Source of the DNA: an uncultured virus (IMG/VR IMGVR_UViG_3300046792_000272)
Lineage: Duplodnaviria > Heunggongvirae > Uroviricota > Caudoviricetes
Direction: 5' to 3' (one strand)
Virus record (IMG/VR): IMGVR_UViG_3300046792_000272
Length of the DNA: 64,000 nucleotides
Within the stretch, counting starts at the first letter, position 1. Each line of letters begins with the position of its first letter. The notes under the pieces are model-generated. The model worked only from the letters and a program-made list of their open reading frames with translations. It did no database searches and had not been told where the DNA came from. Below, piece by piece: positions 31,440 to 48,200 of this stretch. Both the position numbers and the translations under genes were made by a program.

Positions 31440-31702
31440 CGCAGCTGCTCCGTCCCCGGCGGCTTGCCCAGGGGGACGTGCGTTGTGCCGATGGCGACCG
31501 GCGGGTGCCCATCGCCCCAGACGAAGAGCTCAAGGTTGGCGCCGTGGGCGATCGCCTGCCGCTCCTCCTTGGTCGGCTCCCAGACAGAGGAGATCATCGG
31601 TCCCTGGCTGCTATTCCGACGCTCGACCCAGAGATCGTTGTCTTCGGTCCCACCCAGCAGCCTGAAGACGAAGTTGCTGTCGTAGGTTCGGCGGGGCTTC
31701 AC
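31436..31702 (-). CDS. Hypothetical phage protein
   Basis: S.WEPT.EER.AIA.G.N..L.V....HPPV; start/stop overlaps. Confidence 0.65.
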   Translation of the reverse strand: MKPRRTYDSNFVFRLLGGTEDNDLWVERRNSSQGPMISSVWEPTKEERQAIAHGANLELFVWGDGHPPVAIGTTHVPLGKPPGTEQLR

Positions 31703-31923
31703 CGACTCGCCCCCTGTGACAGAGCGAGCTCGGGCACCTCAGCGAGGTGGCTGCGGATCAGGTCGATCGTGTTGGCTTTGCGCTCGATTCGCGTGGCCGC
31801 TTCGATCCGAAGTTCCTCGTAGACGGCCAGGTCATGAAGGGCGGTGAGGCGCTTGCGGACCGTGACCAGGTCCGCATCGATCTCCTCGAGCTCGTTGAGG
31901 AAGGTGTCGCTGACGGTGGGCAT
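31699..31923 (-). CDS. Hypothetical protein
   Basis: TGATG overlap with the upstream gene. Confidence 0.55.
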   Translation of the reverse strand: MPTVSDTFLNELEEIDADLVTVRKRLTALHDLAVYEELRIEAATRIERKANTIDLIRSHLAEVPELALSQGASR

Positions 31924-32582: not shown

Positions 32583-32595
32583 TGGCTCCTCCCAT

Positions 32596-33093
32596 CTAGC
32601 TCGCCCCCCAGCTGCGCCGGGCCCGGACCAGCGCGGGACCGGGAATCTCGAGGCGCCCGCAGGGTGGCGATTCGCCGGCCGAGGAGTCGGGCAGTACGAA
32701 GCGGGGCGCATCATCGGGCGGGATCTCCGGTGGCGCCAGGAGGCGATCGTCTGACCAGCGGACGTGGGTCATCGAACCCTCGCAGGGCCGCAGGTTGGTC
32801 AGCTCGGGGTTGACCTCCTCGCCCTCCGGCGCCCGCCAGGCCGGGCAGCTGATCACGAAGGGCACTGGCAGCGCCAGGCCGGCCTGCTTCAGTGCCCCTG
32901 GCCCTTCGAGGCCGAGCGCGAGGTAGACCTCCCACTCGAAGCCGCAGTCCTCACAGCGGTAGTTCATGGTCAAGCCGCAGAGCGAGCCCACGGCCTGGTC
33001 GATCAGCGCCGCCAGGACGGTCCAATCCTCGGCTGGCCAGGGGCCCTGTCCTTGGTCGATCCTCGCTGCAGCCTTCTCGTACTCGTTCACCAT
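32596..33093 (-). CDS. Hypothetical Zn-ribbon protein
   Basis: YRCEDCG. Confidence 0.55.
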   Translation of the reverse strand: MVNEYEKAAARIDQGQGPWPAEDWTVLAALIDQAVGSLCGLTMNYRCEDCGFEWEVYLALGLEGPGALKQAGLALPVPFVISCPAWRAPEGEEVNPELTNLRPCEGSMTHVRWSDDRLLAPPEIPPDDAPRFVLPDSSAGESPPCGRLEIPGPALVRARRSWGAS

Positions 33094-33266
33094 TTCTCCC
33101 TCCCAGGATCGGCTCCGTTTTCGAGGCGATGCTTGGCCCGGCGCGCGGTTCGCTTCACGGTCGCCAGATAGGCGTACTCGCTGACGCTGATCCCGTTGGC
33201 CGTGGCTCGTTCTTCGACGAGCTGCTTGTCCTCGGCGCTCATGTAGACCGTGATCGGGACGCTCAT
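33087..33266 (-). CDS. Ribbon-helix-helix (Arc/CopG-like) DNA-binding protein, 59 aa, absent from the ORF track
   Basis: My translation: MSVPITVYMSAEDKQLVEERATANGISVSEYAYLA...; ATGA overlap. Confidence 0.7.
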   Translation of the reverse strand: MSVPITVYMSAEDKQLVEERATANGISVSEYAYLATVKRTARRAKHRLENGADPGREKW

Positions 33267-33478
33267 CGGTTGGCCTGGCGCTCGAAGGCCCGGTCAGCCG
33301 ACCCGTAGCAGCGGGGGACGCCGCACACCCGGCAGATCGTCATCGTCTCCTCGGGCCAGCGGTATTCCTCGCCGAGGACATCGCCGAGCCGCAGCGTGAT
33401 CCAACCGTGGTCGGGCAGGCGGCAGCCCTCGACAAGCTCGCGGTCGTACCCGCCGCCGAGCCAGAATTTGCGGCTCAT
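33263..33478 (-). CDS. Small Cys/His-rich hypothetical protein
   Basis: ICRVCG; ATGA overlaps. Confidence 0.5.
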   Translation of the reverse strand: MSRKFWLGGGYDRELVEGCRLPDHGWITLRLGDVLGEEYRWPEETMTICRVCGVPRCYGSADRAFERQANR

Positions 33479-33854
33479 TCGGACCTGCCGGGTGGTAGCT
33501 GGCGGGCAAATGGTGGCCGGCCAGCTACCAGTTTGCTACTGGTTCGCCGGTTCCGAGCCTCGGAATCGCCCTTCGGGTGAAGTCGGCGCTGTGCGTCCAG
33601 GGCGGCCTCGATCGCCGCCCTGAAGCCGAATCGGAGGTTTCTGTCCCGAGTTGTCCCGCGTTGGGTCGGAGACTTACTGAGTCGGGGCGATAGGTTTCCA
33701 ACTGCGAGTCGCCCGCTCCCCAGGTCCAGGTCGCGGCGCCTCATCCGATCGTCTCCGCCCTAGCTGTGTCTGCCCAACAAATACCGAAACCTAGGGGCGT
33801 ATACCCGTCGAGGGCCCTCGACATGGCCCTTCGCCCTTCATAGCGTCGGATCGA

Positions 33855-35279
33855 GTGAATCTCGATGGCTACATTCGAGTATCGCGGGTCGGCGGTCGCG
33901 AGGGAGAGCGCTTTATCTCGCCGGAGGATCAGCGGGAACAGATCGATCGCTGGGCGAAGCTGCGCGGAGTCTCCATCGCCAACTGGGAGACCGACCTTGA
34001 TCAGACTGGCCAGGTGTTGAGCCGGCCCGGTCTTGATCGCATCCTCGAGCGGATCCGCACCGGTCAGACCGGCGGCCTGGTCGTCGCCTACATCGATCGC
34101 TTTTCCCGCGCCGGCGTCGCCGATGCACTGAAGCTGGTCGAGCAGATCGTCGAGGACGGGGGCACCTTCGCCGCGGTCGACCTCGGCCTTGACCCGACAA
34201 CTCCCTTCGGCGAGTTCGGCCTGACGATCATGCTTGGCCTCTCGAGGATGCGAGGGCGCCAGATCGGGGACCGCTGGTATGGCTCCCGCAAGATGGCGGT
34301 CGACCGCGGCGTATTCGTCGGCGGCTTTGTGCCGGTCGGGCTGCGCAAGCGGGAGGACGGACGGCTCGAGCCCGATCCGACGGTGCGCCGTGATCTGATC
34401 GCCGAGCTCTTCGGGCGCCGGGCTGGCCGGGAATCCTGGTCGAAACTCGCGGCGTGGCTCTCGGCCGAGCTCGGTGACGAGGTCAGCATCCCGCGTGTGC
34501 GAGCGGTGATCGCCAACCGGGTCTACCTCGGCGAGGTGAACGGCGGCCAGGGGCTCGTCAACCGCTCGGCCCACAAGCCCCTGGTCGATCGCGCTCTGTT
34601 CGAGCAGGCCAACTCCGTCCGCGGTGTCGTGCCGGCGAGAAGCGGCAGGGCTTCCGGTCTGCTGTCGGGCCTTCTGCGCTGCGCCGGCTGCCGCTACGCG
34701 ATGAAGGCCTCGATGAACGCGGGTGCCGGCGGCCTCGAATACAGGTGCAAGGCGAATCGCCGCGAAACGACCGAGCGCTGTCCGTCGCCGTCGTCGGTCT
34801 CGGCGCACCTGATCGACGGGCTGGTGCTCGAGCAGTTCTGGGAGTGGATCCGACGAGCCCGGGCGACCCAGCTCGAGGGCTCGAAGGCGGTCGAGGAAGC
34901 TGAGGGGCAGCTGCTCGGCGCCGAGGCGGAGCTCGATGCTGTCTTGGACACGCGGCTCTCGGAGGCTCTCGGCAGCGATTCCGAGCGCTACCTCGAGCTC
35001 ATCGCCGATCGCCAGGGCCTCGTCGACGCCGCCAAGGGCGATCTCATCGCAGCCCAGCGCGCCCAGGTCGCGCTCCCGGGCAGCGATGTCGCCGATATCT
35101 GGCCGGATCTCGATCTCCATGAGCGTCGTCGTCTCCTTGCCTCAGCCCTTGACTGCGTGTTTGTTCGCCGCGGCCGGGACCTTGCGAGGCGGACGCACCT
35201 TTGCTGGCGCGGTGAGGCGCCGGACCTTCCCCGAAGCGGAGCGCGCTGGACGCCGGTCCCATTCGACTTTCCAGCGTGA
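33855..35279 (+). CDS. Large serine recombinase (integrase)
   Basis: YIRVS catalytic motif, SPEDQ, RPGL, DRFSR, recombinase domain, LSGLLRCAGC Zn ribbon, coiled coil. Confidence 0.95.
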   Translation: MNLDGYIRVSRVGGREGERFISPEDQREQIDRWAKLRGVSIANWETDLDQTGQVLSRPGLDRILERIRTGQTGGLVVAYIDRFSRAGVADALKLVEQIVEDGGTFAAVDLGLDPTTPFGEFGLTIMLGLSRMRGRQIGDRWYGSRKMAVDRGVFVGGFVPVGLRKREDGRLEPDPTVRRDLIAELFGRRAGRESWSKLAAWLSAELGDEVSIPRVRAVIANRVYLGEVNGGQGLVNRSAHKPLVDRALFEQANSVRGVVPARSGRASGLLSGLLRCAGCRYAMKASMNAGAGGLEYRCKANRRETTERCPSPSSVSAHLIDGLVLEQFWEWIRRARATQLEGSKAVEEAEGQLLGAEAELDAVLDTRLSEALGSDSERYLELIADRQGLVDAAKGDLIAAQRAQVALPGSDVADIWPDLDLHERRRLLASALDCVFVRRGRDLARRTHLCWRGEAPDLPRSGARWTPVPFDFPA

Positions 35280-35345
35280 GCCCGTCCGCTCGTACATGAT
35301 CTGAGTGAAGGTGTGCTCGAAGCTCTTGCGGGCCTCGTCGTTCAC
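35142..35345 (-). CDS. Small basic protein overlapping the recombinase 3' end in antisense (candidate RDF)
   Basis: GTGA overlap with 35342..35566; last gene of the early operon before the recombinase. Confidence 0.4.
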   Translation of the reverse strand: MNDEARKSFEHTFTQIMYERTGSRWKVEWDRRPARSASGKVRRLTAPAKVRPPRKVPAAANKHAVKG

Positions 35346-35566
35346 ACCGGCTCCTCGACCGCGATCTCGGCGACGACCAGGTCCCTGACGACCATGCCGC
35401 CGAGCCACATTTCCGGGCCCATCCGAGCCTTCACCAGGTCGTCGAAGATCTTGTCGGCGGTCTCGCGCGAGTAGGTCGACGCGCAGCGATAGCGGCCGTC
35501 CTGGAGCCAGCGGACCTGGAAGGGCATCGGCCCGTGTGGGAAGAGACGGGAGACGCGCTCGCTCAC
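35342..35566 (-). CDS. Hypothetical protein
   Basis: GTGA overlap chain. Confidence 0.55.
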   Translation of the reverse strand: MSERVSRLFPHGPMPFQVRWLQDGRYRCASTYSRETADKIFDDLVKARMGPEMWLGGMVVRDLVVAEIAVEEPV

Positions 35567-35772
35567 TGAGTGAAGCCCTCCAGCATCGGTTCCCGCAGGA
35601 TCGATTCAAGCCGGTCGATCGCATCCGAGGCATCGCAGGACCAGTAGACCTGGGGCGGCTCTATGCGGGCCTGCCTCGCCAGAGCGGCGAGGCGATGGCG
35701 CTGGGCGGGTGTGGCCGGCCAGCGCAAGCGGCGGGTCCGCTCCGCGGCGATGAAGGGGGCGGATCGCTTCAC
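35563..35772 (-). CDS. Hypothetical protein
   Basis: PATPAQ...L..LA motif; overlap chain. Confidence 0.55.
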   Translation of the reverse strand: MKRSAPFIAAERTRRLRWPATPAQRHRLAALARQARIEPPQVYWSCDASDAIDRLESILREPMLEGFTQ

Positions 35773-36569
35773 GCAGTCGCCCCTGCAGGAACGGGAAGGG
35801 CTTCCAACTCGGCAATGAGGCGGTCAGCCTCTCGGTCGAACGCCGCCGACCGCGCCGCCGACCGCGCCGACTCCGCCGCCGACCGCGCCGACTCCGCCGC
35901 CGACCGCGCCGACCGCGCCGCCGACCGCGCCGACTCCGCCGCCGACCGCGCCGACCGCGCCGCCGACCGCGCCGCCGACTCCGCCGCCGACTCCGCCGCC
36001 GACCGCGCCGCCGACCACGCCGACCGCGCCGCCGACTCCGCCGCCGACTCCGCCGCCGACCGCGCCGCCGAAACGTTTTGCTTACCTTCAAGCGCCGCGA
36101 TGACCTTCTCGATGGCGGCGACCACCTCACCTCGAATCGACTCTGGCCACTGACCGCTGAGGGGCAAGCACTCCTCCTTCAGCCGGCAAATGGCGAGGCG
36201 GTCGGCCAAGCCGTCGAAGTCGGCCCCGACCGGGATCGCCTCGGCGAAGCGGCGGGGCCACTCGGCTGCTTTCTCCTTCGGCAGCCCCTCGAAGATCTTG
36301 TCCTCCAGGTGGGCGAGCCAGGTGGGGAGGCCGAACAGCTCGGGGTAGAGCGCATGAAGGTCGTCCGTCGTCCGCTGCTCCACTGTCGCGGCCGAGTGGA
36401 CTGAGCAGCCCACTGCACACCGTTCGTAGTGGCCGTTGGCCTTGCGGCCGTAGGTGCCCTGCACGATCGCGTCGGCTTTCTCGTGGGCGCCGATGTTCGC
36501 CAGGAGCACGTCCTTGGTGGGCTGCTCGCCGTGGTAGGCGCGCAGAGGTTCGGTTGTCGTCTCGGGCAT
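35769..36569 (-). CDS. Phage protein with C-terminal SAAR/SAAE low-complexity repeats
   Basis: CAVGC, LA.LED.IFEGLP motifs plus repeat tract. Confidence 0.75.
   Translation of the reverse strand: MPETTTEPLRAYHGEQPTKDVLLANIGAHEKADAIVQGTYGRKANGHYERCAVGCSVHSAATVEQRTTDDLHALYPELFGLPTWLAHLEDKIFEGLPKEKAAEWPRRFAEAIPVGADFDGLADRLAICRLKEECLPLSGQWPESIRGEVVAAIEKVIAALEGKQNVSAARSAAESAAESAARSAWSAARSAAESAAESAARSAARSARSAAESARSAARSARSAAESARSAAESARSAARSAAFDREADRLIAELEALPVPAGATA
35842..36070. repeat. Coding tandem repeat of 9/12-bp units (gccgaccgc / gccgactcc)
   Basis: Directly visible. Confidence 0.95.
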
Positions 36570-36787
36570 CAGCTCTCCTCGCTGGAATCGTTGTCGTCGT
36601 CCTGGTGTGCGTCGAAGATCTCCTTGGCGCGCCGGAGGTTGACCGCGCAGCCCGCGTGGATCCAGCCGCGCTTCTCATCGCGCGCGATGTAGTCCTCGCC
36701 GGCGACGATCCGCCCCGAGCAGACCTTGCAGCGTCCATTCCGGCGGGCCAGCATTTCCGGGGCTTGGATGAGCTCAGCCACGGTCAC
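36569..36787 (-). CDS. Small Zn-finger protein
   Basis: C..C.G.I..GE......HAGC. Confidence 0.65.
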   Translation of the reverse strand: MTVAELIQAPEMLARRNGRCKVCSGRIVAGEDYIARDEKRGWIHAGCAVNLRRAKEIFDAHQDDDNDSSEES

Positions 36788-37509
36788 GCCCCCTTGCCTC
36801 CGAGACGGCGGTCGCCGCCCTCCATTCGAACCACACGGCAGCGGGCGAGCCGGGACATCAGCGGCTCGCCGAAGCGCTCGCCGATCTCGGAGAGCTTCAG
36901 GTTCGTCGTCACCAGCATCGGGGCGCCAGCCTGGTCGCGGGCATCGATCGCGGAGAAGAGCTGCTCGCGGCCGAACTCGGTCGGCCGGGCCTTGTCGAAG
37001 TCATCGAGGACGACGGGACCGGAGCCGGCGAAGACCCGGACGGCCTCCAGACGGCCCTCGTCGGTGTAGGCGGAGCCGAGCCGGGCCATGGCGCGGGCGA
37101 TCGAGACGTAGGTGCAGCTCCAGCGCTCGAGGCGGGTCCAACAGGCCGCGGCGGCGAGTCGCGTCTTGCCGATGCCAACCTCGCCGGCGAGCATCAGGCC
37201 GCCGGCATCCTCGGTCTTCGCCCAGTCGGTTGCGGCTGCATGGGCAGCCTCCTGGCCGGGCGCCACCGGGAAGTACTCGAGCAGCTCGCCGCGGAGGGGG
37301 CGAGGGAGCTGGCACCTACCGCGCCGCGCGTCGCGGGCCTGGTGGCGCTCGCGCTCGGCCTGATCGGCGTCGGCTCGCTCAGCGCATTCGTCGCACAGCG
37401 CCTTCGCGGCCATCCGCCGCAGCCAGCGGGCGGCGCCGCTGTCGCCATCGGGCACGGGAAGCGTCAGCTCGGTGCCGCAACCGCTGCAGATCGTGGTGAC
37501 CGTGCTCAC
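36784..37509 (-). CDS. DnaC/IstB-like helicase-loader ATPase
   Basis: GEVGIGKT, VLDD, VTTN, MSRL, GGDRR; N-terminal Zn motif. Confidence 0.9.
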   Translation of the reverse strand: MSTVTTICSGCGTELTLPVPDGDSGAARWLRRMAAKALCDECAERADADQAERERHQARDARRGRCQLPRPLRGELLEYFPVAPGQEAAHAAATDWAKTEDAGGLMLAGEVGIGKTRLAAAACWTRLERWSCTYVSIARAMARLGSAYTDEGRLEAVRVFAGSGPVVLDDFDKARPTEFGREQLFSAIDARDQAGAPMLVTTNLKLSEIGERFGEPLMSRLARCRVVRMEGGDRRLGGKGA

Positions 37510-38375
37510 GCGGCCGGCTCCATGACCTCGTCGTAGCGGGCGAACTTCGATCCGCCGCCGCCGGGTGCGTCCCCGTTGCTGGCCTGCATGCAGCGCTCGA
37601 ACTGCGCGGCGCTGCCGTAGATGACCTCTGGCCCGGGGTGACCCGACCACCAGGGCGAGCGGAAGGTGGCGGCGATGATGGCGCGGTGGGCCTCGGCAGA
37701 GAGCCCGGCGTGTTCGCGGATCCGGCCGACGATCGGGGTGAGGTGGGCGCCGACGGTGTAGGTCGTCCGCGCCGCCTGGTTGAAGGCCTCGATGATCGCC
37801 GTCGCGGTCGAGTGCTCGGAATCGGTGACCGGCTTTCGGTTGACCCGGGGACGCGCACTAGTCTGTGTTGACGTATCCCTTGACGTATCCCCTATAGAGA
37901 CCGAGTCCGAATGTTCGGACCCTTTCTGTCCGGATCCTCGGACCCTTTGTTTTCGTGCCTGGTCCGAGCTCTCGGACCCTTTCGATTTGGCATCAGTCCG
38001 AATGTTCGGACCCTTTCTGTCCGGATCCTCGGACCCTTTGTTTTCGTGCCTGGTCCGAGCTCTCGGACCCTTTCTCATCCGCTGTTCAGCCTCGGAAACG
38101 TCGCCGTCGAGGCCCGGGAGTTTCAGCCAACGGAGGCTCGGCTTGCCCCGGCCGCCGCCGCCCTCGAGAATGGCCAGTTGGCCCGTCTTCTCGATCTCGC
38201 GGAGGACTTCGAAGATCGTCGCGCGCTTCATCCGGGTCTTCCTCATCAGCTCCTTGATCCCGGACCAGGCGATCCCATGTTCGTCGGCGCGATTGGCGAG
38301 GGCAAGCATCGTCACCCGCTGGCGCTGGGTGCCCTCGAAGTACTTCCAGACGGCGTTGTAGGCCTCAACGCTCAC
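37506..38375 (-). CDS. Replication initiator (N-terminal HTH, internal iterons)
   Basis: LALANRADE.G.AW.G...L HTH; upstream of the DnaC-like gene. Confidence 0.85.
   Translation of the reverse strand: MSVEAYNAVWKYFEGTQRQRVTMLALANRADEHGIAWSGIKELMRKTRMKRATIFEVLREIEKTGQLAILEGGGGRGKPSLRWLKLPGLDGDVSEAEQRMRKGPRARTRHENKGSEDPDRKGPNIRTDAKSKGSESSDQARKQRVRGSGQKGSEHSDSVSIGDTSRDTSTQTSARPRVNRKPVTDSEHSTATAIIEAFNQAARTTYTVGAHLTPIVGRIREHAGLSAEAHRAIIAATFRSPWWSGHPGPEVIYGSAAQFERCMQASNGDAPGGGGSKFARYDEVMEPAA
37904..38074. repeat. Two 80-bp direct repeats holding six palindromic iterons (probable ori)
   Basis: 37904-37983 equals 37995-38074; unit GTCCG-N-CGGACCCTTT. Confidence 0.85.
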
Positions 38376-38590
38376 GCGGGCGCCTCGGCTTCCTCGATCA
38401 CCGTGTCGATCTCGACGCCCCACTCGACGGCGACCGCCATCGCCTCGTCGAGCTCGGCCTCATGTTCATCGAGCTGCTCATAGGTGAGGTCGGGGTTCTC
38501 GACAGCCCGCGAGACCTTCATCCAGGCCACCACCAGCTTGCCCCGGGCCCAGGCCTTGCGCTCCCGGGAGATCTGGGCCCCGGACTTCAC
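38372..38590 (-). CDS. Hypothetical protein
   Basis: GTGA overlap chain. Confidence 0.6.
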   Translation of the reverse strand: MKSGAQISRERKAWARGKLVVAWMKVSRAVENPDLTYEQLDEHEAELDEAMAVAVEWGVEIDTVIEEAEAPA

Positions 38591-38799
38591 AGCTCGCCCC
38601 CGAGGAGCATCTGGTGTGCGCTGTCGCGGAGGACGCGACGGACCTGGCGGGCGCTCGCGGAGAAGTAGCCGACCCCGCGGGCGAGCGGCCTGATCGGTAT
38701 TCGCCCTCGCTCAGGGGCGCCGGTGACCGTCGCCTTGAAGCGGCGGCCGCGGATGTTGACCTCGACCTGGTCGCCGGTGTGGAGGTCGGCGAGCTTCAC
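38587..38799 (-). CDS. Hypothetical SH3-like protein
   Basis: GTGA overlap chain; GD.VEV motif. Confidence 0.6.
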   Translation of the reverse strand: MKLADLHTGDQVEVNIRGRRFKATVTGAPERGRIPIRPLARGVGYFSASARQVRRVLRDSAHQMLLGGEL

Positions 38800-39074
38800 C
38801 GAGCTGCCCTCCTGGTGTACTCCGGGGGAAGGGCGGCCTCGATCTCCGAAGGGAGGGGGTCGAAGTGCTGGCCGCCGAGGACGTGCAGCGGATGGTCCCG
38901 GTCGGCCAGCGTCGACGTGATCGGGAACTCGCGCTGCTGTGGAGGGAGGCGGTCAGAGCGATGCCGGTGGTCGTGGACCAGACAGGCCACCCCCATCGTG
39001 ATCAGCATGACCAGGTCGATGATCGCCGCGAAGATCAGGAAGACGAGGGCGATGTTGAGGACGGTCGCGAGCAT
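38796..39074 (-). CDS. Membrane protein
   Basis: Hydrophobic N-terminus; TGATG overlap. Confidence 0.55.
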   Translation of the reverse strand: MLATVLNIALVFLIFAAIIDLVMLITMGVACLVHDHRHRSDRLPPQQREFPITSTLADRDHPLHVLGGQHFDPLPSEIEAALPPEYTRRAAR

Positions 39075-39292
39075 CAGGCCGCGGCGGGCTCCGTGTCGTC
39101 GATCGGCCAGATGTCGGTGACCTGATAGCCGAGGAAGCTGGCGATCTTGAACGCGTTGCGGGCCGACATCGGCTCGCCGGCCTCGGCTCGACCCCAGACG
39201 CTGGCGGCGACACCGGCGCCGCGGGCGGCGGCCGCCTTCGAGAGCCCACGGTTCCGGCGCTCCTTGGTCAGGTTGACGGGGGGGGTCGTCAT
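39074..39292 (-). CDS. Cro-like XRE HTH protein
   Basis: R..RGLS...AA...GV.......AE.G; ends in DIWP. Confidence 0.8.
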   Translation of the reverse strand: MTTPPVNLTKERRNRGLSKAAAARGAGVAASVWGRAEAGEPMSARNAFKIASFLGYQVTDIWPIDDTEPAAA

Positions 39293-39552
39293 TCGCTTCC
39301 GCCTCCGTTCAGCGGCCAGATCTCAGTGGGCAGCCTGTCGAAGACTCGGGCGATCGCGAACTGGGTCCGAGGGAGGGGAACGGTGCGGCCCTCCTCGGCG
39401 TCGCGGATCGTCTTGCCGCTAACTCCGGCTTGTATTCCGAGCTCGTTGGGGGAGAGGCCCGCGTTGATGCGAAGCTTGACCAAGGTCAGATTCCGCGGCC
39501 GCGGCCGCCGCGAGCGGATCTTCGAAACGCGGGTGACGGTTGGGGTCGTCAC
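39289..39552 (-). CDS. Cro-like XRE HTH protein
   Basis: LRINAGLSPNELGIQAGVSGKTIRDAEEG; ends in EIWP. Confidence 0.8.
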   Translation of the reverse strand: MTTPTVTRVSKIRSRRPRPRNLTLVKLRINAGLSPNELGIQAGVSGKTIRDAEEGRTVPLPRTQFAIARVFDRLPTEIWPLNGGGSE

Positions 39553-39631
39553 TTCCCGAAACGTAACACAGACTCCCGTTAGATGCAAGCAGTACCCGCT
39601 AGCCCCCAAAATGGGTGTTTATGGTTGCCTC
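39553..39631. promoter_or_regulatory. Divergent cI/cro promoter region
   Basis: Minus strand TTGCAT-17bp-TACGTT, 7 nt before GTG 39552; plus strand TATGGT, 6 nt before GTG 39632. Confidence 0.6.
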
Positions 39632-39946
39632 GTGGACGAGCTGGTGAAGCGCATTCGCGCAGCACGGGCCTTCGCGCAGCTCTCGCAGCCAGGTGTAGCC
39701 GAGCGGCTTGAGATGAGCGATAAGACCTACAAGCTGATCGAGCTCGGGCAGCGCAGGCCGAAGCGGTCAGAGCTTTTGGCGATCGCGGAGATCTGCACCG
39801 TCCCGATGTGGTTCCTCGAGGGCGGCTGGGAGGGCTGGCGCTCTACCGAATCAGGCGAAGGTGGCGAGCCCGGCGACCTCCGCCCGCGGAATCTGATCCC
39901 CCCGGAGGATCAAGGTGGCGCTGCAAATGAAGCCGAGCAAGCCTGA
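39632..39946 (+). CDS. Phage repressor (XRE HTH)
   Basis: RIRAAR....LSQ..VAERL.MS..TY..IE.G.R.P; divergent from the cro genes. Confidence 0.8.
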   Translation: MDELVKRIRAARAFAQLSQPGVAERLEMSDKTYKLIELGQRRPKRSELLAIAEICTVPMWFLEGGWEGWRSTESGEGGEPGDLRPRNLIPPEDQGGAANEAEQA

Positions 39947-40284
39947 GCTCGGAGGGCTCGGGTCCATGGTCCTGGAGGCCACACAGGGCCAGGTAGGCGA
40001 TCACCAGCAGCCGCTCTCGTTTGACCCCGCCGAGCACAGCTACCGCATGCCCCCAGCCTTCCCGGTTCTCCCCTTTTTCGGTTGTTCTTCAGTGGACGAC
40101 ACTCGCCTCCCGATGGATGAGCCAACCCCCTGCCGGATTGGAGCGGTGATCACCTGGGCTAGATCACGGGGCGATCATAGGCCGGGTTTTCGAGCCACTG
40201 GCCAGATGCCCTACAGCCAATTTGGTGCGAGGACTTTCGCCTGTCCGCAAACAGCGAGAATCCAGTCGAGATAGGAGCCGAACA

Positions 40285-40509
40285 TTGAGCCATCGCCAGA
40301 TATTCATCGGAGCATTCGCTGTCCTGGGCCTGCTGTTTATCTGGCCGCCGCTAGCAGCCCTGGTGTTGGCGGTGATGATCGTGGTCGCAGTCGTCACCTG
40401 GCTGACCGATAGCGGCCGGCCATGTCCTCGCTGCGGCGAGAAGGTCCCGACCGGCACCCTCGATTGCGAGCATTGCGGCTTCGATTTTCGGACCATCGGC
40501 GCGGATTAG
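40285..40509 (+). CDS. Two-TM membrane protein with C-terminal double Zn ribbon
   Basis: CPRCGE......CEHCGFDF; AGGAG RBS before TTG. Confidence 0.7.
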   Translation: MSHRQIFIGAFAVLGLLFIWPPLAALVLAVMIVVAVVTWLTDSGRPCPRCGEKVPTGTLDCEHCGFDFRTIGAD

Positions 40510-40686
40510 TGGCCGTGAAAAGCCCCAGTCTCGGAAGGGACTCCGGCGCCCGAGGTCTCAGGTGCATGTCGAGGGCCAGGCATGGCAGCCATCAACCTCA
40601 GGTCGAGGGCTAGCTGGATTTGCGGGAAATCTCGTAATTTGTCACCCCGGACCAGGCGGTTCCGGCTAGCATGATTCGCCACAACG

Positions 40687-40720
40687 CAAAGAGGGAGGAC
40701 CCGAAGGCCCTCCCTCTTTG
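40687..40720. terminator. Intrinsic terminator-like hairpin, possibly bidirectional
   Basis: CAAAGAGGGAGG / CCTCCCTCTTTG perfect arms; TTCG loop on the minus strand. Confidence 0.75.
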
Positions 40721-40729
40721 GAAATTCAT

Positions 40730-40805
40730 GGGGCTATAGGTAACGCCTGGTCCGCAATCGCCCTTCAAGCACCGCGGATGTGGGTTCAATTCCCCACTAG
40801 CTCCA
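40730..40805 (+). ncRNA. tRNA-Ala/tmRNA-like small structured element
   Basis: GGGGCTA/TAGCTCC-A acceptor stem with G3.U70; GTGGG-TTCAATTC-CCCAC T-arm; no normal D or anticodon arms. Confidence 0.6.
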
Positions 40806-40904
40806 TCACCGCTGACTACGTGGGTGTATATACCCCAAATCGGCCGTTTGTTGTGTTACGAGACCCGATCTGGACGAATTTTTAGTATCCGCTCACGCAG
40901 GGTA

Positions 40905-41522
40905 CTAGGCACAATCGCTCGGCAGCAGCCGAGCGATGCCCCATGAGTCGGTCGGGAACCCCCCAGCTGAGAGGCCGAGCGTGCCGGCGCCGGCGCCGGT
41001 GATGTCGATCGTCCGGCCCGTCCAGGGGGCAGGCCCTATATCGGTTTGTCGGAGGACCGCCGAGTGGCCGGCGACCCTGATCCGGAAGTAGGCGCCCAGG
41101 GTGTCGTAGTTGTAGAGGGCGATTCCGGGAAGCGCCGAGCTGATGCCCAGCGCCGTGGTCCCAGCCCCCTCGAGCGGGGGGCCGAAAACCGAGACCCTGC
41201 CGGCGAAGACGGGGCCGCCGCGGCAGTAGAGCTCATGCCGTCGCCGCTTGTAATAGGCGTGGCGATCGACCGCCCAGCTGTGCTTGATCGCGGCGCGATG
41301 GCCGGGACTCGCCGCACAGCGAACGTGACGATGGTGGGCCCTGATGGTCGTGGTCGAGGGTGATCCCCTGCGCCATCGCTCCGGCGCCCAGACCTGGGCC
41401 GCGAACACTGCCGCCTGCTTCGCTTTCACCGGCTGCGCACAGCCGACCGCAGGCGTATTGGGGTGCGCTGGCGCCGGCGAAACGATGGCGGCAGCGACTA
41501 TGGGGGCAACGAGTGCCCGGAT
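40905..41522 (-). CDS. Secreted RlpA/DPBB-like (lytic transglycosylase-like) protein, probable ATC start
   Basis: DIGPAPWTGRTIDIT motif; signal-peptide-like extension only from ATC after AGGAGG. Confidence 0.6.
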   Translation of the reverse strand: MRALVAPIVAAAIVSPAPAHPNTPAVGCAQPVKAKQAAVFAAQVWAPERWRRGSPSTTTIRAHHRHVRCAASPGHRAAIKHSWAVDRHAYYKRRRHELYCRGGPVFAGRVSVFGPPLEGAGTTALGISSALPGIALYNYDTLGAYFRIRVAGHSAVLRQTDIGPAPWTGRTIDITGAGAGTLGLSAGGFPTDSWGIARLLPSDCA

Positions 41523-41601
41523 ATGGACCTCCTGCTAGGGGACGGGACACCCGCACGTAGGACCGGAAACTCAGCCGGTCCCGGGGGTCATCAGGTGAAG
41601 C

Positions 41602-41967
41602 TCAGCGGAGGTTGTGCAACGGGACGGTGCGGAGTTCGTCGAGCGCCAGGTCGTGGGCGGCAGCAGCTCGCCGCTTGGCTCGCTCCGGGCGGTCGGCGCT
41701 GACCACATCGATGCGGGTCAGCTGGTCGCCGTCCTCCCTCAGGACGACATAGCGGGTTGGCAACCGCCTCGAATTTGCCCGCCTGCGCCGCCTGTTGCCG
41801 TTATACGACGGAACGGCCGCCCTCTGTGGCCTCCGCCCCGGGTTGCACTTCTCCCAGTGCCTCTGCTTGTGCTCGTCGCAGCAGAATTTCGCCGTTTTCT
41901 TACGGCCGTCAATATCCTCGCCGCACCAGAGGCAGTGACGGGTGGGGGGCAGGATCTCGGCCAGCAT
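41602..41967 (-). CDS. Zn-finger hypothetical protein
   Basis: CLWCG.......AKFCC..HKQ. Confidence 0.65.
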   Translation of the reverse strand: MLAEILPPTRHCLWCGEDIDGRKKTAKFCCDEHKQRHWEKCNPGRRPQRAAVPSYNGNRRRRRANSRRLPTRYVVLREDGDQLTRIDVVSADRPERAKRRAAAAHDLALDELRTVPLHNLR

Positions 41968-41970
41968 GAG

Positions 41971-42132
41971 CTACACCTGCCACCCTTCATCCCGTGCTCC
42001 CTTACGGGCAGCCTCCTCTTCGCGTTGCCGTTCGGCCTCCTGGGTCCTGGTCGGATCGATAAGCCGTCCGCCCTCGGTGATTTCAAGGAGGGCCGGTCCG
42101 GGCTCCCTGACCGTTGGCTCGGGGCTCTCCAT
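41971..42132 (-). CDS. Small hypothetical protein
   Basis: TGATG overlap. Confidence 0.45.
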   Translation of the reverse strand: MESPEPTVREPGPALLEITEGGRLIDPTRTQEAERQREEEAARKGARDEGWQV

Positions 42133-42308
42133 CAGCGATGGATCGCGTCGACGAACTCCGAGATGGCAAGCGGGCCGAAGGCGAGGACGACAGCCACGGC
42201 GCCGGCGACGACGGTCGGCAGGCCCACCTGGGTGGTGAAGCCGAAGACGGCGAGGCCCAGCGCCGGGCCGGTCAGGGACTCGGTGGGGCGCTTCTTGATC
42301 AGGCTCAT
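42132..42308 (-). CDS. Holin-like two-TM protein
   Basis: AAAGGA RBS, two hydrophobic segments, downstream of the lysin. Confidence 0.65.
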   Translation of the reverse strand: MSLIKKRPTESLTGPALGLAVFGFTTQVGLPTVVAGAVAVVLAFGPLAISEFVDAIHR

Positions 42309-42517
42309 GGGTTCCTTTCGATAGGGCCGTTGACTTCGAGCTCGAAGGCGTGATCGGCGGCCGTCTCCCGGCGGGTGAGCCAGCAGGCGGCATAGGTGAG
42401 GTTCAGCCAGAGATGGCCGAGGTAGCCCATGGGGGCGTAGTGGCACTCGTCCTCGTAGAAGCGCCAGGGCAGGAGACCGAACCAGAGCGCGCAGGCGATG
42501 GCTCGAGCACGAATCAT
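42305..42517 (-). CDS. Hypothetical protein
   Basis: Operon context. Confidence 0.45.
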   Translation of the reverse strand: MIRARAIACALWFGLLPWRFYEDECHYAPMGYLGHLWLNLTYAACWLTRRETAADHAFELEVNGPIERNP

Positions 42518-42727
42518 TCAGGCCGCCCGTCTCTTTCTCGGCGCAGCGCGGGCGTGAGCCATACGCCGGAGCATGGCGGCGCGGTCTCGGTGGCCGTTGT
42601 AGACCTTCTCGCCGGCCAACGCCCTCTCTCCGCGAGCAACCATTGCTCCGGCAATGGCAGCGGGGTCGACTCGATAGGTGCCGTCCCGGACTTCCTGCTT
42701 TATCCGCGCGAGATGGTCGCTGAACAT
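42518..42727 (-). CDS. FlgM-like anti-sigma-28 domain protein
   Basis: LARIKQEVRDGTYRVDPAAIAGAMV matches the FlgM C-terminal pattern (K..I..G.Y.VD...IA..M). Confidence 0.75.
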   Translation of the reverse strand: MFSDHLARIKQEVRDGTYRVDPAAIAGAMVARGERALAGEKVYNGHRDRAAMLRRMAHARAAPRKRRAA

Positions 42728-42731
42728 CGCG

Positions 42732-44327
42732 TCAGCGGGGAGCCTTCACCTGGTCGACCGGCCTTTCGTCCGCCACCGTCGGCGCCGCGTTGATCAGCTG
42801 CTTCCGGGATTCGCCGCCGAGTGGCAGCTTCACCTTCGCCCGCGGAGCTCGCCGGGCCCGGCGCGGCAGCTTCTTCACCCGGAGGTCGACCAGGGCCGAG
42901 CGCCCGCCGACCAGCTTGTCGACGTCGACGTCGCCATTGACGCCGGCCACGGTCGCAGTCGAGGTGTACTGCCAGAGCAGGTCCGTCGACCAGGGCGGGC
43001 TCGGGACCACCGCCTTGCTGACGCCGTAGTCGGCGATCCACAGTCGGTACTTGCCGAGCCAGCTGCAGCTCGAGAAGTAGGTCTGGGCGAAGCTCGGGTA
43101 GGTGTAGACGATCGCCTTGACTCCGAGGTTGCGGCGCACCAGGCGCAGGAAGGAGCCGACGTAGCGACAGGTCGCCTGTGGGTTGAGCTCGCTCGTCTCG
43201 ACGTCGAGGACAGGCGGCAGAAAGCCCTTGCCATAGCCGGCGTGTCCGACCACCTGGGTGAACCAGGCCGCCTCCCGGGCGCCTGTGCGGTCGGCCCTGG
43301 GCCGAAGGTAGTGGTAGACGCAGGGCACCAGGCCCGCCTCGGTGACGGCACGCATCTTCTTGCGGCCGAAGCCGAAGTCGACGTAGTCCTGACCCTCGGA
43401 GGCCTTGACGCAGGCGAAACTGGCGCCGGCGTGGCGGACTGCTCCCCAGTCGATTTCCCCATTGTTGGAAGAGACGTCGATGCCCCAGGCCGGGCCCTTC
43501 GGCTTGTGGTGGTGCCGGTGCTTCTTCTTCGGCTTGTGGTGCTTCGGGTGCTTGACCGCCGGCGGCGCCTTGGCCGTGTGGGGAACATGCTTCGGAGTTG
43601 TCTTGATCGGCTTGGAGAGCGGCCGGCGCAGGCGCTTCCAGACCCGCGGGCTGACGATCCCGTTGACCTTCAAGTACTGCGCGTGCTGGAAGTGTTCGAC
43701 CGCGACCTTGGTCGAGTGGCCGAACTCGCCGTCGACCGTGACGCTCTTGTCGCCGTGGCCACGGAGCAGCTTCTGGACCTTGCGGACGTAGACGCCCTGG
43801 CCGGGGCCGCCGGAATGCAGCCGCAGGATCGGGTCGTGGAGGTTCGTCCCAGGATTGGGGCGGTGAAAGACCGCGTTCCATTTGATGTGCCACCACTCGG
43901 TCGGGGCATCGGACCAGCACTTACACCAGCCGTAGCGCTTCCCGTGAAGGTCGATGTAGCCGCGGGTCGCCTGGCTGACGTCGATCGCCAGGCCGAGGCC
44001 GTGATTGGAGGTCCCTGGGATCGCCGCGTTGCCGCAGCTGCCGAGGGCGCACCAGTATTCGCGGTAGTAGTCCTGGCGAGCCAGGGGTCGGTAGGCCGAG
44101 TCGCAGCCGTTGATCGCCAGCCTCTGGCCGGCGCCGAGCGCCATCGAGTTGAAGGCCGCGGCCGCGTGGTTTTCGAGCTGCCCCTCGAGCGGGGTGCAAT
44201 GGACGCCGGTTGCGATCGGCGACATCGCGCTCGCCGGCGCGTCTCCGTTGGTGAAGGCAGTCGCACTCCGGGCGCCGCCGAGTAGGACTAGAAGCGCGCA
44301 GAGCGCAGCGAGGGTGGTCCGCCGCAT
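42732..44327 (-). CDS. Endolysin: signal peptide + M15/VanY-type peptidase + PG_binding_1 + His/Lys linker + GH25 muramidase
   Basis: SAYR..., PGTSNHGLGLAID, EWWH; VDGEFG..T..AV..FQ; GIDVS, KASEG, LDVE, WQYT, DVDVD. Confidence 0.92.
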   Translation of the reverse strand: MRRTTLAALCALLVLLGGARSATAFTNGDAPASAMSPIATGVHCTPLEGQLENHAAAAFNSMALGAGQRLAINGCDSAYRPLARQDYYREYWCALGSCGNAAIPGTSNHGLGLAIDVSQATRGYIDLHGKRYGWCKCWSDAPTEWWHIKWNAVFHRPNPGTNLHDPILRLHSGGPGQGVYVRKVQKLLRGHGDKSVTVDGEFGHSTKVAVEHFQHAQYLKVNGIVSPRVWKRLRRPLSKPIKTTPKHVPHTAKAPPAVKHPKHHKPKKKHRHHHKPKGPAWGIDVSSNNGEIDWGAVRHAGASFACVKASEGQDYVDFGFGRKKMRAVTEAGLVPCVYHYLRPRADRTGAREAAWFTQVVGHAGYGKGFLPPVLDVETSELNPQATCRYVGSFLRLVRRNLGVKAIVYTYPSFAQTYFSSCSWLGKYRLWIADYGVSKAVVPSPPWSTDLLWQYTSTATVAGVNGDVDVDKLVGGRSALVDLRVKKLPRRARRAPRAKVKLPLGGESRKQLINAAPTVADERPVDQVKAPR

Positions 44328-44373
44328 GGCGGGCCTCCTTTCGGTTAGGGACCGGCAGCTCTGCCGGTCGAGA

Positions 44374-44928
44374 TCAGCAGTCGGGGACTAGGCCGCAGGC
44401 TTTGCCGTGGACGTCTTCGGCGACGCCCTTGACGGCTTCCCCTACCTGGCCGACGGCTTTGCCGACCGGGCCTGGTTCAGTCTTTTCGGGTCCTTTGTGG
44501 CCGGTAGGGCCTTCAGGAGCGGGTTCCGCCGGAGTCGACGGAGTCGGTTCAGGGCCCGCGGGCCCCGCCGGGGTATGCGGCGTGTGCTTGCCATGCCCGC
44601 TGCCATGGTGCCCGCCCTTCGGCGGGCTCGGTTGCTGGCCTCCCTGGTGGGAAGGCTGGAGGGCATCACCCCCCTTTAGGTGCGCCGAGAGCTTCGGCGC
44701 ATCGGCGACCAGGCGCCGGCAGCTGGGAGTTCGCAGGCAGGTGCGGAGGACGTCGATCGGCCGTACGTGCTCGAGCACGACGATGCGGTGCACGATCGAG
44801 CGGGTTTCCCGCTTGACCTCGGCGGAGATGCCAAGGAAGATCAGAAGCGCACCGAGTACGATCGCGCTGACCCGGAAGAGGGTGCGACCAATTCTGGTCT
44901 CGACAAGCCAGCGACCGAAGCTCTTCAC
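44374..44928 (-). CDS. Lysis-region membrane protein with Pro/Gly/His-rich C-terminus
   Basis: GTGA overlap; C-terminal half homologous to 1319..2017. Confidence 0.7.
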   Translation of the reverse strand: MKSFGRWLVETRIGRTLFRVSAIVLGALLIFLGISAEVKRETRSIVHRIVVLEHVRPIDVLRTCLRTPSCRRLVADAPKLSAHLKGGDALQPSHQGGQQPSPPKGGHHGSGHGKHTPHTPAGPAGPEPTPSTPAEPAPEGPTGHKGPEKTEPGPVGKAVGQVGEAVKGVAEDVHGKACGLVPDC

Positions 44929-45209
44929 CCCCGAGTCACCACCAACATGATGATCGTGCCGATCATTCCGGCCACGACCGTGACCATCAAAGTCGCGACG
45001 AGGCGGTAGAGCCCCCCTATACGTTCCTCGATCTTCGTCTCGATCGCCCCCATCCGCCGCTCGAGGTTCGTGTTCAGGTTTTCGGTCTTCTCGTAGAGCT
45101 CGCCGATCTGCCGGCCATGTTCTTGGTTGGTTCGGCTCAACCCGTTGTTGCCATAGGGCCCCCAGAGGCTCGTCGCGATCTGGGTGACGCGGGTCTCGAG
45201 ATCTTCCAC
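44925..45209 (-). CDS. Coiled-coil plus C-terminal TM protein (holin/XhlA-like)
   Basis: AGGAG RBS; architecture; position. Confidence 0.6.
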   Translation of the reverse strand: MEDLETRVTQIATSLWGPYGNNGLSRTNQEHGRQIGELYEKTENLNTNLERRMGAIETKIEERIGGLYRLVATLMVTVVAGMIGTIIMLVVTRG

Positions 45210-45247
45210 CAGGTGCTGGTCTCCTCTCGCGGAATCGGGGGGTCAGG

Positions 45248-48200
45248 TCAGTTGCGCGACTGCATGGCGATCTCGTGGCGGGCCACAATCGCCGTCAGGG
45301 TTTGCTCGGGGCCGTCGACGGTGATGTCGAGCGATTTCGATTCGTCGTCCCAGGTGGTCGCATAGATCAGCCGCGGTTCGTCGGCCGGGTGGTCGAGGAT
45401 TCCGAGGGTTTCCCCGCAGCGCGGTTTCCAGCCCTGGTGCCAGTGCCCGGCGTAATCCTGGATGTAGCCGCCCGAGATCCGATAGGTCCCGGGCCGCTTC
45501 GGACGGTTGTATTCCGCCAGGAAGGCGCGGCCGAACTGTATGGCTTCGGCTTCGGTGCAGGACCAGGGAACCGTGGTATCGGTCCACAGCGCCTCGCCCT
45601 GCTGGTTGGCCGGGTTCGATTCGGATTCGTCCCGAAGTTCAGAGTGTTCGGACGGGTAGAGGATGCGGGACTTGCCGCTGAGCAGGTCGGTGTAGGAGAC
45701 CGTGACCCCGTTGGCGAAGTTTTCGATTGAGTCGCCCTCGAAGCGGACTTCGACACCCGGATCGTCGGTGCGGATCTGCCAGTCATAGGTGGTCAGGTCA
45801 TTCTGTTCGAACTTGAAGGTGCGGTTCTCCCAGACGCCCATTTCCCAGAGCGCCAGTTCTCGGAGCTGCTGCAGGATGTCGTAGCCGAAGGAGGGGTTGT
45901 CGTGCCAGGTGGCCTGCGTGACCGGGAAGGTGTTCGGCTGCCCCCCCCACTTGAGCTTCGGGTAATAGGTGGCGAGGATGTATTCGATAATCTCGGAGAG
46001 GTAGTAGCCCTCTTCCGGTTCGCTGCCGCGGGCGGTCAGGCCGTGCCTACCAATGACGCGAGGGTTCAGCCATCCATGAACCGCTCGAATATCTCCGGTG
46101 GCGACCCCGAGGTATTGGGACTGAACCAACGCGAACTTCCGGCCCGATGTCGTCGCACTCACCGCTTGGTTGCTTGCGGCGGTCTGATCGTGGTCGGTGC
46201 CGGGATCGCTGGAGGTGCTCAGGTCGTTCGAGGACAGGCGGGCGCGGTCTTCCCAGGTCGCATCGACTCCTTCGCCGCCCAGTGGTGAGAAGTCGTAGCG
46301 AAGCGCACCGATGTCCTCCCCGCCCGCGTAGAACCAGGCCTCACCGTTCTCCTTATAGGTGCCATCGAAACGGGCGAAGGTGAACACGATGCCCGGCGCT
46401 TTGGGGCCTTCGGACCGCCATCCCGCGCTCATCTGCCCCTCCGGGCGCGCTCCGCCGGTCAGAAGTTCACCCTGGCGCTGGGTCGATGGCCCTTCCCAGC
46501 CCGCGAGCCGGCGATCGATTATCAATGGGGCGATCTTGCGCGACTTTAGGTAGGTGGCCCAGCCGACCAGCGCGACGGCGATCTGCTGCTGCGGGCTGTT
46601 GGTGCGCGGATTGGAGTGGTGGCGGCCCTCGTAGGCGATCTCGCCATTGCGCCCGACGAAGCGGTGGGTATCGAGGAGGTTGAGGTCCGGGTAGTCCTTG
46701 AATATCGGCCGGTTGAGTGCGTAGCCCCCGGTGCCGAAGCCGTCACCCCTCTGGGTGCCGAAGCTGAGCCCCAGGGGCCGTGTCGCAGCCTTGCTCGAAT
46801 TGCTGGCGCGGCGGAAGTCTCCATTCGGGGTTTCGACCTCGACGTCCAGCTCAAGGGCCGGTTTGCGGACGGGGGTGGGCTTCGGTTCTTCGCCGTAGGG
46901 GTAGACCTTGAGGCCATCGGCGAGAGCCCTCGCGGGCGGGTCGACGTAGAAGGAGGACGCGAACCCTTCCTTGGCGGCTTTCTGGGCCGCTTCGGAGCTC
47001 TCGATCGGCCAGTCCAGTCGGCCTTCTCCCTGCGGGATGTTCCAGTTGAACCAGACCACCGCCTTGACGGCGGGCATGTTGGTCTGCAGGCTGGTCCCTA
47101 GGAGGTCGGTGATCCAGGTGGACTTCGTGCCGCCGATCTCCGACGCTGCCGTCTCGCAGATGATGAGCGGCTTCGACGGGGCGATTTCCTGAGCGCGTTC
47201 GTAGCTCGGCTTGAACAGCGGCGTCGCAGCTCGCCAGCCGAATTTCTTCAACGGGTTTTCGCCCGAATAGCCATCCAGCCCTACCCAGTCGACATAGGCA
47301 TCGCCCGGGTAGTAGCGCTCGAAGTCGGTTACCCCCCCGAGCACGTTGGGGCACCAGACCCAGGTGACGTTCTGGGCGGTGGGCGCGACCTTGGAATGCA
47401 GGTAGCGCCAGGCTTCGACGTAGTTCGACTGGCCGGCCCATGGCCAGGAGGCGGTGTTCATCTCCCACCACGGCCGCAAGAAGATTGGGTGCTTGGAGGC
47501 CGAGGCGGCGGCGGCCCATGCTGCGATTTCGACGTCGTATTGGCCTTCCAGCGTTTTCGTCAGGACGCCTTCCGGTCCCCCGATCGACTTCAGCGGAATG
47601 CAGCCCCGAGCATGAACCGCATCGGTGGCGCCGACCCCGAAGCCATCCCAGGTCAGCCAGGGGTCCGAGTAGGAGACGATCCCAGCGGCGCGCCCGGCGT
47701 GTTCCTCGAATTTGTTCTGAGTGGCGGCGAGGTAGGGCGCGTCCGCTTGCCCGATCGAGTAGACGTCGCCGTCCATGATCGCCCCCCAGTAAGCGCGGGT
47801 CGGGGACCAGGTGGGCGGCACTGGATCGTTGACTCCGACCCAGAGGTTCGAGGTGGTGCCGGTGCTGTCGTTGATCGCGAAGTCGTCCAGGTAGACGATG
47901 TTGGCCTGCGAGTTGATATTCCCGAGCTGGACCGCTTTGACGCCGAGGTTGCGGAAGTTCATCGACTGTTCGGTGGCGACCGTTTCCCCGTCGATTTTGG
48001 CCACGAAGGTGCCGTTCCCCGCCCCCGGGATCAGGAGCATGACCTCGATCACATACCAGCGTTCGGCTTCGAGGTTCTTGGTGCCGGTCGGATGGGTGGA
48101 GGTAACCGCGTTCCAGAATTCCAGTTTCCCCGCAGAGGTCGAGGCGATTTCCAGCACGGTGCCGGTGTTGTCCTTCAACTGGCAGAGGGACTGTGTGGCG

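Follow-up and report, generated by a model that had tools for sequence, protein, structure and literature searches.

What is a variant of FlgM, the anti-sigma factor of flagellar loci, doing among the lysis genes of a phage? The open reading frame (ORF) that raises this question, referred to here as ORF69, encodes 69 amino acids (aa) on the minus strand at positions 42518-42727 of the window, by which we mean the whole 64-kb stretch of DNA that was analysed, and its protein sequence begins MFSDHLARIKQEVRDGTYRVDPAAIAGAMV... The preliminary description of this DNA had reported a frame of this length and sequence starting 4 nt past the endolysin stop, and both the gene and its position are confirmed. 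The spacing between the endolysin stop and the ORF69 ATG is indeed 4 nt, the ORF69 TGA abuts, with zero gap, the ATG of ORF70 (42305-42517, minus strand), a Trp-rich protein of 70 aa that has no family match, and the ORF70 stop overlaps the ATG of ORF58 (42132-42308, minus strand), a small membrane protein of 58 aa with a hydrophobic segment at residues 32-50, which is holin-like by position only. ORF69 is embedded in the lysis cluster via junctions of the translational-coupling type. A read-through fusion of ORF69 with the endolysin was considered and rejected, the two genes being in different frames and the ORF69 frame being already closed 6 codons before its ATG.

The endolysin itself (531 aa; 42732-44327, minus strand) contains a GH25 domain (E 5e-38), a PG_binding_1 domain (1e-11) and a weak VanY-like region, and matches endolysin PHROGs; its N-terminus carries a signal-like hydrophobic segment at residues 6-24, and a basic tail is also present. 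Upstream of it lies a gene for a 94-aa protein with one C-terminal transmembrane (TM) segment (44925-45209, minus strand), again holin-like by position only. On the other side of the cluster are found ORF121 (41602-41967, minus strand), whose Cys/His-rich and basic product has a weak HNH-like PHROG match, and ORF174 (40905-41429, minus strand), the last minus-strand gene ahead of the divergent lysogeny genes, for which no family match was obtained. A scan of positions 40400-45400 found no sigma70 promoter and one terminator-like site, which falls within the endolysin gene but on the opposite strand. Sites fitting the sigma28-type pattern TAAA-N14-16-CCGATA numbered 0, with 0 expected. Judged from its position, ORF69 is apparently transcribed late, together with the lysis genes. 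Its product is basic (net charge +9) and soluble, with a maximum 19-residue hydropathy of 0.67 and with neither a signal peptide nor a TM segment, and three helices, at residues 3-14, 22-37 and 49-67, are predicted by AlphaFold2 from a 4-sequence alignment (mean pLDDT 77.6, pTM 0.56).

The FlgM-type hairpin and its family

The Pfam FlgM profile (PF04316) matches ORF69 with an E-value of 3.9e-6 and 27.4 bits, just over the curated cut-off of 25, as the preliminary description had anticipated. The aligned stretch begins 3 residues into the protein and pairs residues 4-30 with positions 28-54 of the 55-position profile, so that the domain as a whole is not covered. When the near-identical 43-kb record G001, which contains the same gene, is scanned in all six frames, ORF69 is the sole PF04316 match even at E<=10 (2e-7, 27.3 bits), and among 14 control genomes only those of E. 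coli, B. subtilis and T. maritima exceed the cut-off. An HMM built from 28 canonical FlgMs, which came from a different sample, puts the ORF69 frame in first place when all 1259 stop-to-stop frames in the window are ranked, although with a weak score (E 0.052, against 0.48 for the second). With the NCBIfam FlgM equivalog model (TIGR03824), ORF69 reaches 25.9 bits over model positions 70-95 of 98, below the cut-off of 40.75, and no match for ORF69 was found in PHROGs.

A HMMER search of 1.84 billion representatives identified three relatives of ORF69 (P0002-P0004; 67-71 aa), which are 48-53% identical to it, align from end to end and share 19 invariant columns. The PF04316 scores of ORF69 and the three relatives are 27.4, 30.7, 30.0 and 33.9 bits, with all four over the cut-off, and the TIGR03824 scores of P0002-P0004 are 27.6-33.0 bits (cut-off 40.75). 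When used as a query, the profile of this four-member family retrieves solved FlgM chains, namely 9wsf_B (E 2.5e-4) and 1rp3_B (E 0.052), and is aligned to their last helices. Searches with the AlphaFold model, by Foldseek against the PDB (best E 2.3) and by VIA-align wide (best Z 4.8), returned helical hairpins of a generic kind, among them no FlgM chain, fold search having little power for an extended helical protein of 69 aa. The family consists of 4 clusters with 1 member each; a word-based homologue search with ORF69 returned the query alone, scans of viral contigs for P0003 and P0004 found nothing, and genome and metagenome scans with the relatives returned canonical FlgMs or a fusion to a helix-turn-helix (HTH) domain, and no family members. 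One apparent match to P0002 in viral contigs (L009) was discarded as spurious; it lies on the strand opposite a terminase-like gene in a phage of low GC content.

Which part of FlgM has been kept? In the Pseudomonas aeruginosa sigma28-FlgM complex, FlgM has two helices; sigma2 is contacted by the first part of alpha1, and the residues packing on hydrophobic residues of sigma4 are V77, I80 and I84 of alpha1 and V96, A97, L100 and L101 of alpha2 (PMC12784957). In the alignment of the family profile to the solved FlgM chain, in which the chain numbering equals the numbering of the paper plus 2, these residues align to L6, I9, V13, I25, A26, M29 and V30 of ORF69. The seven positions are hydrophobic in all four family members and in 28/28 canonical FlgMs, and Y18 and A26 (ORF69 numbering) are invariant in all 32 of these sequences. 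Residues 4-30 (42638-42718, minus strand) would form a FlgM-type helix-GxY-helix hairpin, the equivalent of alpha2 and the final part of alpha1 in the P. aeruginosa protein, where this part contacts sigma4. Nothing precedes this hairpin: the sigma2-contacting start of alpha1 is absent, and so is the N-terminal export region, the motif beginning at residue 4, whereas canonical FlgMs have 27-88 residues ahead of the Pfam match. As far as can be judged by sequence comparison, ORF69 keeps the sigma4-type hairpin of FlgM and has dispensed with the export region and the sigma2-contacting segment.

In its remaining part, ORF69 has a predicted third helix (residues 49-67; 42527-42583, minus strand) that lies outside FlgM. 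The third-helix region is invariant at N44, G45, D48, A51, R55, M56, A59 and R60 across the four-member family, and by this measure the predicted helix is family-specific and conserved. The earlier view of ORF69 as the C-terminal half of FlgM without its export region is sound with regard to the missing export region and the match in the sigma-binding part, and has to be amended in that the Pfam domain is represented by one half only, the sigma2 segment is missing, an extra third helix has been added and the score stays below the equivalog cut-off.

These data also bear on the possibility that ORF69 is a remnant or a non-functional ORF, and that its likeness to FlgM is without consequence. The borderline Pfam score would fit this, as would a GC3 of 0.73 (neighbours 0.82-0.89), the lack of a clear Shine-Dalgarno sequence ahead of the gene and a family made up of four single-member clusters. 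However, the relatives are conserved over their full length, both ends of the gene are tightly coupled to its neighbours, ORF69 is 100% identical in G001 while the endolysin differs there by 3%, and the AlphaFold model attains its mean pLDDT from only 4 sequences, and we regard a remnant as very improbable. Contigs covering ORF69 contain no informative variation, the one exception being a contig of low depth in X1 that bears an indel at 42555-42570.

The phage, its sigma factor and its host

ORF69 is not near flagellar genes and sits between the endolysin and the small membrane proteins of a phage. When ORF69 and a canonical FlgM (L006) were compared by tblastn with 50,697 phage records, no match at E<=1 was obtained; none of 10 FlgM-like proteins matched PHROGs through the hairpin, and no report of a phage-encoded FlgM was found in the literature searched. 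Judged from these collections, a phage-borne FlgM-like copy is unusual.

Since record G001 (43,051 bp) is equivalent to window 25173-44476 followed by window 1-25166, the window from position 1 to ~43057 represents one permuted phage unit. Its structural genes are of the myovirus type (TerL at 23335-24744, portal, capsid, sheath and baseplate J), and its early region codes for a helicase, a methylase, a sigma factor, a DnaC-like loader, a replication initiator and Cro-like and CI-like regulators. A large serine integrase (33855-35279, plus strand; phrog_95, E 2.2e-55) serves as a marker of a temperate phage, and a gene for a CI-like HTH repressor (39326-39946, plus strand) is divergent from the Cro-like gene (39289-39609, minus strand). 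Integrase and repressor genes support a temperate lifestyle; the earlier term prophage goes beyond these markers, no host flanks being present in the window.

Several other features of the window were observed. From 43058 rightwards, it contains a different structural module, of the siphovirus type, and it links a myovirus-type module (running from 24.7 to 3.6 kb) and the siphovirus-type module (running from 64 to 45 kb) via a shared lysis/early region. The N-terminal two-thirds of the endolysin are duplicated (1-1422 and 43058-44476, 93.2% identical), and an IMG/VR contig that carries the siphovirus module (L011) ends exactly at 43058. The two joined structural modules could stem from a chimeric assembly or from phages that are tandem or mosaic. 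The replication-initiator gene (37506-38423) contains two 80-bp direct repeats (37904-37983 and 37995-38074), which are 100% identical, lie 91 bp apart and are possibly origin iterons. Upstream of the CI-like repressor gene, and on the same strand, lies a gene (40222-40509, plus strand) for a membrane protein of 95 aa whose C-terminal part is a zinc ribbon (UPF0547; phrog_8436), and this gene may be expressed in lysogens. The early region also contains a tRNA-Met (CAT) gene (26398-26473, minus strand), whose neighbours are a gene for an HNH endonuclease (25713-26066) and one for the small terminase subunit (24725-25138).

The phage sigma factor is encoded at 29815-30915 (minus strand), where a SigH-like sigma domain (30313-30915) is followed by a C-terminal extension of ~165 aa; its location agrees with the preliminary description, which had placed a phage sigma factor at 30.2-30.9 kb. 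To the eye, the C-terminal extension resembles a coiled coil joined to a region of winged-helix type. Sigma regions 2 and 4 are present, and the protein scores 151.8 bits with the NCBIfam SigH model, below the cut-off of 208 bits, and only 19.8 bits with the FliA/WhiG model TIGR02479. Its best named relatives, with 40-59% identity, are annotated as 'SigH' in Egicoccus, Nitriliruptor, Thermoleophilia, Gaiellaceae and Frankiales metagenome-assembled genomes (MAGs), and also in Clostridia; the Actinomycetota among the best of them are deep-branching. Taken together, the named relatives of the sigma factor and the GC content of 65% point to an actinobacterial host, and the phage probably infects a member of the Actinomycetota. 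The DNA was found in soil and rhizosphere metagenome runs, and no RNA run carrying it is among the sequencing runs listed.

ORF69 might act on this phage-encoded sigma factor, either as a late brake or timer of the transcription that depends on it or by holding it inactive, and the two would then be a sigma/anti-sigma pair carried by the phage. The phage sigma has both region 2 and region 4, ORF69 bears a putative sigma4-type hairpin, the two genes are part of one 43-kb genome unit, and an anti-sigma factor encoded distally in the late operon would yield a simple negative feedback. To our knowledge, however, the partners of FlgM-type proteins are always group-3 factors of the sigma28 type. The phage-encoded sigma is SigH-like and not of the FliA/WhiG type, as its TIGR02479 score indicates, and its gene is non-adjacent to ORF69, at a distance of 12 kb; we consider this target, the main alternative to a host sigma, quite unlikely.

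Short hairpin ORFs in Actinomycetota

In the genome collection, the sole match was an Actinomycetota MAG (G002), and a sample of 401 genomes from its phylum was analysed; the tallies include 13 genomes flagged as unpublished, none of which is among the 20 or 51 positive genomes described below. The ORF69-family profile matched 20 of the 401 genomes at E<=0.01, and 19 of the 24 places were examined, with L033, L035, L036, L040 and L044 dropped as off-motif or very long frames. In most of the 19 loci the ORFs are short (46-93 aa), carry the hairpin at the N-terminus or close to it and continue into an unrelated tail. When compared with the Pfam FlgM profile, 12/16 hairpin ORFs match at E<=0.1 and 4/16 exceed the cut-off, always over profile positions 26-55 only, and they are not given a family of their own in NCBIfam. 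In the ESM Atlas, the clusters nearest to ORF69 are likewise actinobacterial hypothetical proteins of 59-71 aa (scores 0.87-0.88), with FlgM on 13-24% of their members, which we take as a lead only.

No flagellar genes were seen in the 3-kb loci around these ORFs (19 loci). The earlier statement that FlgM is normally found in flagellar loci and not in prophages agrees with the lack of matches in PHROGs and the 50,697 phage records, and goes too far with regard to the short hairpin ORFs, which occupy non-flagellar loci of Actinomycetota. A thiL-like gene (AIRS/AIRS_C) is a neighbour in 8 of the 19 loci (L023, L024, L025, L027, L034, L037, L038 and L042, in genomes G160, G173, G047, G147, G238, G368, G264 and G002, respectively), and the hairpin ORF and the thiL-like gene form a conserved small-protein neighbourhood that is apparently undescribed. 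Other neighbours include a D-Ala-D-Ala ligase (1 locus), a sortase (2 loci), a response regulator plus prepilin peptidase (3 loci) and an aGPT-pyrophosphorylase-like protein (2/19, one of them also with a serine recombinase). The latter two loci contain hairpin ORFs of 86-89 aa (L043, 1327-1593, minus strand; L045, 1501-1758, plus strand) directly downstream of a gene for an alpha-glutamyl/putrescinyl-thymine pyrophosphorylase-like protein (DNA hypermodification); L045 is the one with the additional serine recombinase, and both are probably mobile elements. In G002, a hairpin is fused to a resolvase-type HTH domain (HTH_7) at L003 5992-6273 (equal to L022 1492-1770); this gene is ~200 nt from tRNA-Pro and beside tRNA-Gly, the genes after it have no family match, and the region looks like an integrated element.

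Full-length FlgM-like ORFs are present in the same phylum. PF04316 is over its cut-off in 51/401 genomes, and among the 53 listed matches 43 cover most of the profile and 10 are of the half type. For the 28 full-coverage matches that were extracted, the frames are FlgM-like, measure 84-137 aa from the first start codon and end 9 residues after the motif. According to a 2014 review, actinobacteria encode no FlgM-like protein. Two of the full-length ORFs among L046-L075 share a contig with flagellin (G177 and G007). Streptomyces venezuelae is reported to be without a FlgM homologue and to use RsiG, a protein of a different fold (PMC7005675).

A FliA/WhiG-family match (E<=1e-50) is found in all 51 genomes with PF04316 over the cut-off, compared with 292/401 overall, a comparison that ignores phylogeny and completeness and is made against a high background of 73% of the sample; counted by the family cut-off, 286/401 genomes have FliA/WhiG. 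The 10 genomes with only a half-type match all fall within the 51/51, and FliA/WhiG is present in 18 of the 20 family-profile genomes, the 2 without it having had off-motif matches. Flagellin was detected in 2/10 half-type genomes versus 3/5 canonical-FlgM genomes; an export-less hairpin fits cells without a flagellar exporter.

Proposed function and comparison with known systems

The explanation we tentatively favour, with a confidence somewhat short of even, is that ORF69 is a genuine late-operon phage protein, composed of a FlgM-type C-terminal hairpin and a third helix, that binds sigma domain 4 of a host FliA/WhiG factor. As it has no export region, signal peptide or TM segment, the protein would most likely stay in the cytoplasm, where it would grip sigma domain 4 through the hydrophobic face known from FlgM and block or remodel the use of RNA polymerase by the target sigma. 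The most probable target would be a group-3 FliA/WhiG (sigma28)-type sigma of the actinobacterial host, a partner favoured because FlgM hairpins are known to bind such sigmas and because the hairpin ORFs co-occur with them. The sigma28/WhiG regulon (motility or development genes) would be shut down as a result, and more core polymerase would be left for other sigmas, including that of the phage. The ORF, its close coupling to the lysis genes, the match to FlgM, the conserved contact positions and the family itself are established; binding to any sigma, the choice of sigma and all physiological consequences are what we infer, and the affinity or mode of action may differ from that of FlgM, because the sigma2-contacting part of alpha1 is missing. 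Two benefits put forward in the preliminary description, the loss of a flagellar phage receptor and the freeing of polymerase, are weakened by the apparently late expression of ORF69, which makes an advantage in terms of motility or receptor hard to see.

A short amphipathic hairpin could also serve non-sigma partners, as the HTH fusion L022 may illustrate. ORF69 might then be a cytoplasmic lysis accessory, such as an antiholin-like protein or a regulator of endolysin export, or else a small dimeric or nucleic-acid-binding regulator that acts via its basic tail. The sole direct functional clue is the position of the gene, which is tightly coupled to the endolysin on one side and to two small proteins, one of them membrane-spanning, on the other, and the signal-like N-terminus of the endolysin suggests that lysis timing may want extra control; the basic tail (net charge +9), the fusion of the hairpin to HTH_7, the many actinobacterial hairpin ORFs in non-flagellar settings and the return of generic helical hairpins only by fold searches are further points in favour. 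ORF69 lacks the TM segment looked for in a holin, antiholin or spanin, but may still act like an antiholin in the cytoplasm. On the other hand, no lysis-related PHROG or Pfam match was found for ORF69, the residues conserved are exactly those that FlgM uses on sigma4, and FliA/WhiG accompanies the hairpin in 51/51 genomes with a PF04316 match; we judge such a role somewhat unlikely, though a serious rival.

A broader scenario can be drawn, which we put forward as speculative and, as a whole, unlikely: a temperate actinophage would have captured the sigma4 hairpin of FlgM as a cytoplasmic, AsiA-like inhibitor or appropriator of sigma made with the lysis genes, and ORF69 would represent, on the phage side, a larger and so far unrecognised class of export-less 'half-FlgM' proteins, perhaps acting against WhiG/FliA in mostly non-flagellated Actinomycetota. 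Phage proteins acting on sigma are few and mechanistically informative, and one derived from FlgM is absent from PHROGs, the 50,697 phage records and the literature searched. Should ORF69 bind a sigma, it would define a ~30-residue sigma4-binding unit of FlgM and reveal a new route by which a phage can re-programme transcription. The short hairpin ORFs in turn bear on the control of WhiG/FliA-type sigmas where the flagellar exporter is missing, and represent a candidate actinobacterial regulator.

Among the known systems, the closest is FlgM itself (PF04316, TIGR03824; structures 9wsf and 1rp3/1sc5), with which ORF69 shares the helix-GxY-helix arrangement, the seven hydrophobic sigma4-contact positions and the invariant Tyr and Ala, and which is equally small, helical and soluble. 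In contrast to FlgM, in which the motif lies 9 residues from the C-terminus, ORF69 has the motif at its N-terminus, is without the export region and the sigma2-contacting start of alpha1, has an additional conserved third helix, and is encoded in a phage lysis cluster and not in a flagellar locus. The actinobacterial hairpin ORFs (e.g. L027, L030, L034 and L022) resemble ORF69 in their N-terminal hairpin and short tail, in matching the second half of the Pfam profile only and in their non-flagellar contexts; they differ from it in that their tails are unrelated to its third helix and that they are chromosomal (8/19 beside thiL-like genes) or located in other mobile elements, and they are uncharacterised.

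T4 AsiA is a small phage protein that binds sigma domain 4 and redirects host transcription. Gp67 of the S. aureus phage G1 (PMC3694059) is likewise a small binder of sigma domain 4, which acts on RNA polymerase through the host sigma and redirects transcription. Both offer a works-like analogy only, no sequence relation to ORF69 being expected, and whereas they act early and on the primary sigma, ORF69 belongs to a late/lysis cluster and would derive from a sigma28-type anti-sigma factor. RsiG is a c-di-GMP-dependent anti-sigma factor of WhiG in Streptomyces with a 6-helix coiled-coil fold entirely unlike that of FlgM (PMC7005675); it resembles ORF69 in its proposed activity, as it inhibits a flagellar-clade sigma of Actinomycetota and is not exported, and is different in that it needs c-di-GMP, has another fold and shows no sequence likeness to ORF69. 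Set against these systems, ORF69 appears to be a phage-borne variant of a known anti-sigma module, truncated at one end and extended at the other, whose function we infer from that module.
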